A stretch of DNA of 64,000 nucleotides from the IMG/VR virus record IMGVR_UViG_3300010429_001617; one strand, 5' to 3'. Below, piece by piece: positions 13,064 to 62,992 of the stretch. Below the pieces are notes generated by a model that did no database searches, was not told where the DNA came from, and was given only the letters and a program-made list of their open reading frames with translations. Made by a program: the position numbers and the translations under genes. Within the stretch, counting starts at the first letter, position 1. Each line of letters opens with the position of its first letter. Source of the stretch: a virus. Lineage: Duplodnaviria; Caudoviricetes.

Positions 13064-13309
13064 TTATTTATGATAATTGCTAATAAATAAATCAAATAAT
13101 TCTGAAGTTGATAGCGCTGGGGAACCATCAAAAAGCTGTCTATTGTATGTTTGCCACGCGTCATATCTTATATTTTTTTGCCATCTATTATCTCCTAACC
13201 ATTTAGCGAAGTCAATAGATATCGATTTAGTTTTATCGTCAATCTCGGATAAATTTGAATCTGATTGTTCGTTAAATCTTTTAAGTCTTTTGTTTGTCAT
13301 AACGCTCAT
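13064..13309 (-). CDS. Small protein with leader KRLKRFNE
   Basis: Leader motif plus TTAATATATA on the minus strand at 13321-13330. Confidence 0.6.
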   Translation of the reverse strand: MSVMTNKRLKRFNEQSDSNLSEIDDKTKSISIDFAKWLGDNRWQKNIRYDAWQTYNRQLFDGSPALSTSELFDLFISNYHK

Positions 13310-13352
13310 CTTTTTTATTTTATATATTAAAAAATAAATTAAATTTTTTTGA

Positions 13353-13799
13353 TTATTCTAAATCTGTAAGTTGATATAAAAGAACTTTATTTTTTATGGC
13401 GTATCCCATATTATCTATGTCTTTCATACTTTCTCTTAGAAATTCTATGTGAACATCAAATATATCTTTTTTATGCTCATAATTCGCTAAGTCCCATTCA
13501 ATTAATTTCATTTTTTCTGATCCGTTGGTGGCTATTGGATATTTTGTATGATAAAACTCAAATCTCTGTTTTTTTAAAGCCTTTATTTTAGGCATATATT
13601 TATACAATTCATATGACACAGATTTAATCTCTTCAACAAGTTCTTGACGAGAGCTAATCACTTCAGCCTGTAATGGTGTGACATCTTTTGCGCTACAATT
13701 TAATTTTTTTGACAACTCGTTTATTGTTGAGTTCCAATATTTCTCTCTATCCTCGAGTATTTTTGGCAAATCTTTTACATCTAATTCTTCGTAATTCAT
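13353..13799 (-). CDS. UvsY-like recombination mediator
   Basis: Helical 148 aa protein ending IEFLRESMKDIDNMGYAIKN, similar to the T4 UvsY C-terminal GFAIK motif. Confidence 0.55.
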   Translation of the reverse strand: MNYEELDVKDLPKILEDREKYWNSTINELSKKLNCSAKDVTPLQAEVISSRQELVEEIKSVSYELYKYMPKIKALKKQRFEFYHTKYPIATNGSEKMKLIEWDLANYEHKKDIFDVHIEFLRESMKDIDNMGYAIKNKVLLYQLTDLE

Positions 13800-13852
13800 A
13801 ATAAAAATGATTTTTTATTTATATTAAAAAAACAATCAACTGTTTAAATTTT

Positions 13853-14215
13853 TCAACTATCCTCCCCGAAAGGATCTTCATCTGAGATCACTCTTTTTGT
13901 TATTTTTATTATATCATCGTACTCGCCAGGTGAAACAGATCTTCCATTTTCGAGTATAAATTGAAATGAATAACTATACATATTATTATCCATAGTCACA
14001 ATTATCGAGATTTCATCGACGATGCCATCAGAAGTTAAAATTTTAACTCGTCTATGATAATAACTTTGATATAAATAAAGAATAGTTCTTTTTATATCTA
14101 TTGTGTTCACATTGAAACCCAATTTATCTAAAATCTCATGAAGATTTGTTTTCTCTTCAACATAAGAGACATTTTCATCTTCTTGTTTTTTAAAGAAATT
14201 GAATTTTGTTTTCAT
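13853..14215 (-). CDS. Hypothetical protein ending in a DEDPFGEDS tag
   Basis: Tag motif; TTAATATATA on the minus strand at 14223-14232. Confidence 0.65.
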   Translation of the reverse strand: MKTKFNFFKKQEDENVSYVEEKTNLHEILDKLGFNVNTIDIKRTILYLYQSYYHRRVKILTSDGIVDEISIIVTMDNNMYSYSFQFILENGRSVSPGEYDDIIKITKRVISDEDPFGEDS

Positions 14216-61511: not shown

Positions 61512-61523
61512 ATCACTTGAAAT

Positions 61524-62714
61524 ATGGCTAAAAAAACAGAAGGAATATTAAAAAATATAGAAAAAATTGAAGCATCTGTTTCAGATATAGGTGAAAAAAT
61601 AAACAGCATCAGCGGTCTGAGTATACCAAAAATATCTTTTCAAGATTTTTCAAAGGGGACATCTATTGCTTCTGGTGTTTTTCGTTTTAAAACCCCTAGA
61701 CAAATAGCGAAGAAAATGATTACTATGGGGGGAAACATAGGAGGAACATCCATAACTGATAAAATTAAAGATTTTAATAATCAAGTGATAGCTGGGGCAG
61801 ATATGGGAGCAACAGCCAGCCAGACTTTGATGGCATTAAACGAACAACTTATTGCTGAGCAAGATACAGAAATGACAGCGCATTGGATAGTATATGGTAA
61901 ATTTTTATATGATGACAATGGTAAATTGGTTGATAATGAAATTTTATTTCCAGAATGTGTTGGTCCGGATCAAAATGAAGATCCTAGAATAAATTTTATG
62001 ACAAATGATTTTCCAATAATGGATCAAGTGAAACAAATGAAAGACGAGCTCGTTCGCTCGGTAAAACAACTTCGTATAAAAGTCGGTGAAATTGCCGCAG
62101 TTTCAAAAGATATACCAGCACAATTGATATTAGCGATAACATCATTGGCTTCAGCTGTTGTCATATTCCCATTTGGATCTGGTGTTCCACCAGCTGTAAC
62201 GGCAGTTAAAAATCTTTTATCTAGTATACAATCTTTACAAACAAGAGTATCTCAATTATTAAATCTTTTAAAACCATTAGCTTATTTGGAATATTTGTTA
62301 GATGATGATGACGCTGAAAAAGCAATAGCTGTTGTAGATAAAATAATGAAAATAATATTTGTTCCAATAAAAGCTATAGAAATAATGATAGACACAATGG
62401 TTACGCCAGTTATGAGCATCATACCAAAAATACCTGGTGTTGATACGGAAGCCGAGCCAATTGAAGCCGAAGATATTGTTGTTAAGCCATCTGATAAAAT
62501 CGAACCAGGCACAGAGATAACATTAGACATAAATCCTTCTAAAGGATCTTGGCAATATAATTATTTATGGGTGTCTTCGCCATCTGGTTTCAAATCAACC
62601 GATAAGAAAGTAAAAGTGATTCCACCATATACTATGAAATATTATTGTCGAGTGACCGATAAGGCCGATGCTAATAATTATATTATGAAATCTGTTAAAG
62701 TGAAAGTTGGATAA
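61524..62714 (+). CDS. Hypothetical tail-associated protein with a C-terminal Ig/PKD-like domain
   Basis: YNYLW...YYCRVTD. Confidence 0.55.
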   Translation: MAKKTEGILKNIEKIEASVSDIGEKINSISGLSIPKISFQDFSKGTSIASGVFRFKTPRQIAKKMITMGGNIGGTSITDKIKDFNNQVIAGADMGATASQTLMALNEQLIAEQDTEMTAHWIVYGKFLYDDNGKLVDNEILFPECVGPDQNEDPRINFMTNDFPIMDQVKQMKDELVRSVKQLRIKVGEIAAVSKDIPAQLILAITSLASAVVIFPFGSGVPPAVTAVKNLLSSIQSLQTRVSQLLNLLKPLAYLEYLLDDDDAEKAIAVVDKIMKIIFVPIKAIEIMIDTMVTPVMSIIPKIPGVDTEAEPIEAEDIVVKPSDKIEPGTEITLDINPSKGSWQYNYLWVSSPSGFKSTDKKVKVIPPYTMKYYCRVTDKADANNYIMKSVKVKVG

Positions 62715-62761
62715 AAAAAATGAATTTTTTATTTAATATATAATAAAAAAAATTATTCCAT

Positions 62762-62992
62762 ATGAAAAACATTAAAACATTTGATGAATTTTCTTTAAAT
62801 GAGAAAAATAAACCTTCGGCAGGTTTGACAAAAAAAGAGAAATCAGAAATCGTGAAGAAGGCCAAAAGAGGCGAAGATATAGGTAAGCCAGGTGAACATT
62901 TCAAAGATGTTGTAAAAAAGGCTAAGAAATATGGCGCTAAAGATCCAGAAGCAGTAGCTGGAGCAGCCCTTTGGAAAAATATTAAAAAATAA
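62762..62992 (+). CDS. Small basic protein with leader MKNIKTFDEFSLNE
   Basis: TTAATATATA at 62733-62742. Confidence 0.7.
   Translation: MKNIKTFDEFSLNEKNKPSAGLTKKEKSEIVKKAKRGEDIGKPGEHFKDVVKKAKKYGAKDPEAVAGAALWKNIKK

Follow-up and report, generated by a model that had tools for sequence, protein, structure and literature searches.

The internal proteins of bacteriophage T4 enter the prohead core by means of a capsid-targeting signal, and this signal is portable (PMC3012670). The sequence is carried by IpI, IpII and IpIII (also by Alt) and is removed by the gp21 protease (Mullaney and Black 1996, cited in PMC5694885 and PMC3012670). In the giant phages phiKZ, 201phi2-1 and SPN3US, propeptides of head and ejection proteins are cut at [SAG]-x-E by the gp175/gp245 protease (PMC5694885, PMC7411985). 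They are mostly longer than 100 residues, PMC5694885 gives no single consensus leader for them, and gp21 and the giant-phage proteases all cleave after Glu (PMC5694885). Here we describe a short N-terminal leader found on otherwise unrelated proteins of a tailed phage (Duplodnaviria; Caudoviricetes), represented by a stretch of 64,000 nucleotides from the IMG/VR record IMGVR_UViG_3300010429_001617 (hereafter, the window), and on proteins of its relatives. Judging from its sequence, we moderately favor the reading that this leader is a T4-type capsid-targeting propeptide, by which the phage probably ships a large protein cargo together with its DNA.

The window, with 29% guanine plus cytosine (GC; range 28-32%), is a fragment of an uncultured megaphage, contigs of which are also present in ENA ERZ795054 and ERZ795055 and in JGI 3300009771. 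Its nearest public records are LR756501 and LR756503, uncultured phage assemblies of 735 kb that share with it 67% amino-acid identity across an open reading frame (ORF) of 901 amino acids (aa) located at 19191-21896. More distant relatives are assemblies of 460-640 kb, and LR756502 is likewise more distant, with 36% identity on the 901-aa protein. Assemblies of the LR756501 type we take to be the huge phages of Al-Shayeb et al. 2020, which are predicted to infect Bacteroidota. The whole sequence of LR756501 was the reference genome for the genome-wide counts given below.

All 13 N-termini quoted in a preliminary description of the window, as well as an N-terminal extension of glutamyl-tRNA synthetase (GluRS), translate as written there (Table 1). 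Among 68 greedily called genes, the core K-x(1-3)-[YF]-x-[EQN]-F is found eight times within the first 20 residues, one of these matches being a chance one in a P-loop protein, vs once in 18,247 internal positions. The core pattern was devised after the data had been seen, but two related genomes show an independent enrichment of this pattern. The sequences behind the leader are unrelated, as had been proposed: when residues 1-22 are masked, no two candidates are similar at E<0.1, and most candidates (among them the proteins at 23531 and 47805) have no Pfam or PHROG family. The earlier figure of about a dozen leaders holds only in part, since two are canonical and about six are gapped, with the hydrophobic-N-E shifted 1-7 residues from the core, and the others are core-only or doubtful. 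A core with a shifted hydrophobic-N-E is seen in 62762, 47805, 48616, 24940 (GluRS), 28330, 13309 and 39541. Similarly, what stands of the portable leader is an N-terminal module selected at the protein level, while several of its supposed members (a GIY-YIG endonuclease, a 26-codon remnant and the core-only cases) are weak.

The leader of LR756501 has the consensus M-[IVK]-K-x-[YF]-x-x-F-[ILVM]-N-E, which is sharper than the window form. The pattern [YF]xxF[ILVM][NA]E has 33 matches in the six frames of this genome, about 27 of which lie 1-9 residues after a Met and have a long ORF downstream. A matrix was built on the LR756501 leaders and scored without the Met columns; with it, 50 genes have an N-terminal match of at least 8 bits vs 2.3 expected from the internal rate, half of these genes (25) being training members and the other half independent. 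The 53 proteins that score at least 7 bits are mutually unrelated, with a mean column identity of 7% in their alignment, and no more than eight of them can belong to a Pfam family, given that all 27 families detected match one member apiece. Cargo families include PPK2, methyltransferase, DeoC, radical SAM and nucleotidyltransferase, and in enzyme cargo the leader stands upstream of the catalytic domains. A paralogous family was rejected as an explanation, given that the cargo behind the leader is unrelated. A looser pattern is present at 13% of N-termini vs 2.6% after internal Met, which amounts to as many as ~130 proteins per genome; taken together, the strict and loose counts place the leader on ~5-13% of the proteome. 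In LR756502, 11 N-terminal leaders were found within the first 340 kb.

Outside these genomes, the exact back-translated leader M-I-K-K-Y-x-x-F-I-N-E has 25 matches in IMG/VR. Each of them begins an ORF on a low-GC contig, and some, at least, look like megaphage fragments. An exact 42-mer taken from the window had no match in IMG/VR. The same leader has a single match in 596 Gb of prokaryote genomes. Thus, the canonical form at least is not equally frequent in host genomes, and the idea of a general bacterial N-terminal feature was rejected on this count. The cultured Flavobacterium phage MaF61 (168 kb) has no leaders and no S77 match.

Comparison of orthologues shows both retention and turnover of the leader. 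Between the window and LR756501 it is kept in the GluRS extension (which ends M-K-E in LR756501, the proteins being 74% identical overall), in the 48616 protein, in the 18977-19156 protein (N-terminus kept at 606422-606640) and in the 28330 protein, whose homologue has K-K-F-N-E at the same place. It has been gained or lost in the GIY-YIG gene, in the gene at 50654 and in the shuffled domain of 62762, where the last 63 residues correspond to the C-terminal end of an LR756501 protein of 230 aa with a leader-like N-terminus of its own. Across 15 homologues of the 48616 protein, ten leader positions are invariant (M1, L4, N6, F13, K14, N18, E19, E20, L21 and L22), and two of the homologues have insertions exactly between the core and the site. 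In GluRS, a cut at M-N-E would yield a normal GluRS N-terminus.

The closest described counterpart of this leader is the T4 signal. Both are peptides at the extreme N-terminus, 10-20 residues long, with the core K-x-[YF]-x-x-F, a hydrophobic-x-Glu end and unrelated cargo behind them, and the relatives of the window have a T4-type portal, protease and gp23-like capsid protein. When the matrix trained on LR756501 was run over the six frames of T4, the four best-scoring frames were IpIII (first), gp61.1, the UvsW.1 frame and IpII (fourth). IpI of T4 has the same core with an I-T-E site nine residues further on, like the gapped variants of the window, and at known maturation sites the T4 genome has L-T-E in gp23 and L-R-E in gp24. 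There are also differences. The T4 cargo is three to four proteins, whereas that of the megaphage runs to tens (50 strict, up to ~130 loose), has an acidic average pI and counts GluRS, PPK2, DeoC and radical SAM among its enzymes; the P2 residue of the megaphage leader is nearly always Asn; the megaphage protease is fused to a long tail of repeats and coiled coil; and the megaphage leader is known from sequence alone. As a separate observation on T4 (AF158101), the starts of gp61.1 (18966-19130) and of the UvsW.1 frame (~114210-114440) fit the capsid-targeting pattern as well as those of IpII and IpIII, and the first seven residues of gp61.1 are those of IpI.

The propeptides of phiKZ and SPN3US offer a second comparison. 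These are also huge phages with many internal head proteins and Glu-directed cleavage, their protease belongs to the same superfamily (the megaphage protease also matches Pfam S80), and some of their cargo has a transmembrane segment after the propeptide, comparable to the hydrophobic, membrane-like segment directly after the leader of the 47805 protein. However, the P3 residue is small in those phages and I, L, V or M here, hydrophobic as in T4, and the leaders described here, at 10-21 residues, have neither the length (>100 aa) nor the [SAG]-x-E site of giant-phage propeptides. Encapsulin cargo-loading peptides, and scaffold- or protease-mediated targeting in HK97-like capsids, are further cases in which a short portable peptide sends unrelated enzymes into an HK97-fold shell. 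Such peptides are usually C-terminal and retained, and they have no sequence similarity to the megaphage leader.

No head module lies within the window itself, and the evidence on portal, protease and capsid comes from LR756501 and LR756502. In LR756501 the gene order is portal (phrog_213, 1.7e-66), protease and gp23-like capsid protein (PF07068 at 6e-24; phrog_138), with the capsid gene directly after the protease, as in T4. The protease has 807 aa (73913-76336) and its N-terminal domain matches phrog_207 at 1e-27 and Pfam S80 and S77; a second paralogue has 178 aa. The C-terminal halves of the capsid proteins are clearly homologous to T4 gp23 (E=8e-8). In both relatives, the capsid N-termini share ...H-Q-[MI]-N-E-N about 43 residues from the start, and the opening stretch of the protease ends in I-N-E-A or I-R-E-G. 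Both proteases (that of LR756502 at 225272-227371) have a long tail with 12-15 tandem 15-residue repeats, Y-x-E-Y-[IL]-A-E-x-L-D-x-x-I, and single repeats score 7-9 bits on the leader matrix. The tail probably serves as the protease's own scaffold, each repeat providing a site at which it would be chopped, and the leader itself appears to resemble one such repeat unit.

The hydrophobic-x-Glu at the end of the leader, a site of the kind cut by T4-family prohead proteases, is coupled to the core. [ILVM]-x-E follows within three residues in 36% of N-terminal cores vs 9% of internal ones (p=1e-15), and with Asn at P2 the figures are 17% and 1%. The P1' residue after the site is Ala, Ser or Gly in 43%. 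In the mechanism that we propose, the leader would be an N-terminal amphipathic segment whose core, K-x-[YF]-x-x-F, would attach the protein to the scaffolding core while the prohead assembles. The hydrophobic-N-E would then be cut after Glu by the phage prohead protease, of the gp21/gp175 family, and the mature cargo would remain inside the head alongside the DNA until its delivery to the host.

The leader genes also share their upstream signals with structural genes. The 9-mer TAATATATA is the most upstream-enriched one in both the window and LR756501, and the latter has T[AT]ATATATA in front of its portal, protease, 901-aa and baseplate-wedge genes. The preliminary description had placed most leader genes behind such a box or in transcription units starting from one, and this was borne out: T[AT]ATATATA lies 5-26 nt upstream of seven candidates, and the others are downstream of such a gene on the same strand (23531, for instance, belongs to the + strand gene run that begins at the box before 21981). 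In LR756501 the box is directly before 25 of the 50 leader genes vs 171 of 975 others (odds ratio 4.7, p=4e-7) and, counted by operon, before 45 of the 50 vs 437 of the 975 (p=7.5e-11). From the company that the box keeps, we infer that the leader genes are co-regulated with structural genes and would be expressed late. Two box-to-ATG distances are preferred, exactly 5 nt (34 genes of LR756501) and ~15-25 nt, and the 5-nt class suggests leaderless mRNAs. The box of 21981 is 5 nt before its ATG, so this start is favored over 21936.

A second short motif is often found with the leader. D-P-[YW]-G-E-E-x-W is present in 91 of the 1,025 LR756501 proteins (9%), and these tend to be leader proteins as well (odds ratio 4). 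Of its 106 copies, 40 stand at the very C-terminus. D-P-[YWF]-G-E-E-x-W also separates modules in multi-domain proteins and closes the small protease paralogue, and five proteins of the window carry it (Table 1). We found no description of a D-P-Y-G-E-E motif in phages in the literature searched.

The main rival to the propeptide reading, which we consider unlikely, is that the leader stays on the protein uncleaved and docks it to another partner, and is thus not a capsid address. The partner could be a phage hub protein, a chaperone, a compartment of the kind of the vault/SPFH-like shell of LR756501, or a modifying enzyme that reads the shared leader in the manner of the maturases of ribosomally synthesized and post-translationally modified peptides. 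The leader is highly conserved and not confidently folded, as is typical of short linear motifs: in the AlphaFold model of the 48616 protein (for which no BFVD fold match was found), residues 1-17 have a predicted local distance difference test (pLDDT) value <50, and the body 85-93, so this conserved, low-pLDDT leader fits a conserved linear motif. Its presence on ~5-13% of the proteome, its co-occurrence with the abundant D-P-Y-G-E-E-x-W, and the fact that LR756501 encodes both a major-vault-protein-like protein and a radical-SAM protein would also be in line with docking. However, docking leaves unexplained the coupling of the core to hydrophobic-x-Glu and a small P1', the same tripeptide at the N-termini of capsid protein and protease, the recovery of proven T4 signals by the matrix and the link to structural-gene promoters. 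The vault-like protein of LR756501 (17179-19608, 809 aa) combines major-vault-protein shoulder and repeat domains with an SPFH/Band-7 domain. This is an uncommon make-up for a phage protein, and tagged proteins might conceivably be gathered in such a compartment instead.

Less probable still is that only the canonical leaders (the two of the window and perhaps five or six gapped ones) target the head, the weak ones (those starting at 21981, 22730, 19156, 13309, 23914 and 26543) being a common N-terminal helix start of AT-rich phage proteins. Just five window genes score at least 7 on the ungapped matrix, and the loose and gapped patterns, merely ~5-fold enriched in LR756501, are insufficiently specific alone; the gapped pattern is not enriched in T4 or in MaF61. 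T4 has the pattern on gp61.1 and UvsW.1, proteins not annotated as head proteins, and the LR756501 homologue of the GIY-YIG protein begins directly at the GIY-YIG domain, without the extension. Nevertheless, T4 IpI is proven to be packaged with a core and a displaced site, so gapped forms can work, and a mere helix start would not account for the excess of the loose pattern at N-termini over internal Met positions or for its tie to box operons (odds ratio 4.0).

Selection on the leader acts on the protein and not on the DNA, since the choice among synonymous codons is the same at conserved positions as in the whole genome (TTT 64% vs 67%, AAT 71% vs 69%, GAA 71% vs 82%). A DNA or RNA element, as well as simple AT pressure, was rejected for the same reason. 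A by-product of nucleotide-level selection at gene starts, be it for AT-rich unstructured initiation (leaderless or free of Shine-Dalgarno sequences) or at a boundary of gene-cassette recombination, is highly improbable: the leader does consist largely of residues with A/T-only codons (F, I, N, K, Y) and many box-driven genes do start only 5 nt after the box, but besides the codon choice, substitutions are conservative at the protein level (Y/F, I/L/V/M) and the distance from the motif to the ATG varies from 3 to 9 residues, whereas the spacing inside the motif is fixed.

Several points weigh against a capsid-targeting propeptide. A cargo of 50 proteins by the strict count and up to ~130 by the loose one per genome is unprecedented and far above that of T4, and it includes housekeeping-type enzymes such as GluRS, unexpected in a capsid. 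The leader proteins are acidic (median pI 5.5), and T4 internal proteins are basic. In the T4 scan, gp61.1 and the UvsW.1 frame score as highly as they do without either being annotated as a head protein. The homology of the capsid N-terminal part to T4 gp23 is only suggestive (E=0.37), and the homologues of 48616 have a conserved helix that does not stop at the putative cut site but extends beyond it. Finally, a tblastn search with two leader proteins against 50,697 phage records retrieved only uncultured megaphages and no cultured relative with virion data.

More tentatively, one might picture Mahaphage-type huge phages that pre-load 50-130 proteins (5-13% of their genes) by means of one address label, clip it with the head protease and deliver the set with the DNA as a take-over proteome (GluRS, polyphosphate kinase, a radical-SAM enzyme and many ORFans), with D-P-Y-G-E-E-x-W as perhaps a second address or a linker. 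The T4 signal has been known since 1996; no paper on capsid-targeting leaders, or on an expanded set of them, in huge phages was found in the literature searched. If the propeptide reading is true, metagenomic sequence would suffice, without culture, to list the proteins that the virions of the largest known phages deliver, which bears on the use that huge phages make of their extra genes and on the question of which proteins are the first to act on infection. The principle of T4 capsid targeting, which already serves for packaging foreign proteins, would then extend to a distant lineage with a cargo set ~10 times larger than that of T4, translation and metabolic enzymes included. The leader consensus and the predicted cut site provide concrete testable peptides for metaproteomics.

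Table 1. Leader candidates, second-motif carriers, promoter boxes and other annotated features of the window. "Second motif" denotes D-P-[YWF]-G-E-E-x-W or a related tag.
Position	Strand	Feature	Leader-like N-terminus	Box	Matrix score
30760-31134	+	124-aa Pro/Ala-repeat protein	canonical, residues 1-10, ends L-N-E	30731-30739	18.4 (top score in window)
23531-23917	+	128-aa ORFan	canonical, residues 1-11, ends L-N-E		17.4
47805-48605	+	266-aa protein	gapped: core 5-10, L-N-E 12-14	47770-47778	
48616-49638	+	340-aa all-helical protein	gapped: core 7-13, L-N-E 17-19		
62762-62992	+	76-aa protein	gapped: core 5-10, L-N-E 12-14	62734-62742	
24940-26541	+	complete GluRS; Pfam tRNA-synt_1c begins at residue 27	21-residue leader-like extension, ends M-N-E		8.3
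28330-29115	+	261-aa protein	short, residues 1-10, ends F-N-E	28298-28306	
13064-13309	-	81-aa ORFan	weak, residues 7-14, ends F-N-E	13321-13329	negative (ungapped)
39287-39541	-	84-aa ORFan	core 6-13, I-N-E 18-20	39557-39565	
21981-22733	+	leucine-rich-repeat protein (LRR_4, 2e-46); second motif after leader	core-only, then at once D-P-W-G-E-D tag	21967-21975	
22730-23509	+	259-aa ORFan; second motif as C-terminal D-P-W-G-E-E-N-W tag	core-only		
18977-19156	-	59-aa protein between 901-aa structural gene and baseplate-wedge region	core-only		
30290-30508	+	72-aa protein; second motif as D-P-F-N-E-D tag close to C-terminus	leader-like; extra candidate, not in the preliminary description		8.9
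23914-24927	+	GIY-YIG/NUMOD1 homing endonuclease (Pfam)	doubtful: 18-residue leader-like extension		1.5
26543-26623	+	26-codon remnant ORF	doubtful: core motif		
17384-18313		second motif, 3 copies			
13853-14215		second motif			
19191-21896		901-aa conserved structural gene; its box (- strand) is the reference for the structural/late class		21923-21931	
		box example		21967-21980	
		box example		17370-17383	
	-	box example		51136-51144	
59631-61511		gp5-like hub fused to lysozyme (phage tail/baseplate gene)			
15460-17385		gp6-like wedge (phage baseplate gene)			
36728-37186		SmpB (Pfam 1.2e-51)			
30546-30700		two ordinary tRNA-Val genes			

Among the leader proteins, that at 30760 has no homologue in LR756501 by BLASTP, and at 670230-670631 that genome has a similar leader followed by a Pro/Ala/Gln-rich stretch. 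For the 901-aa structural protein, neither a PDB sequence match nor a Pfam or PHROG family was found. A GDP-mannose dehydratase and a ligase-like gene are among the other genes of the window. SmpB is phage-encoded; no tmRNA gene was called within the window by ARAGORN, which read a four-base anticodon in an odd tRNA-like gene of undetermined type (12570-12653, minus strand). The genes at 49674-50117 and 50227-50631 correspond to an HSP20 small heat-shock protein and a SET-domain protein, according to the precomputed Pfam labels of identical metagenome contigs.

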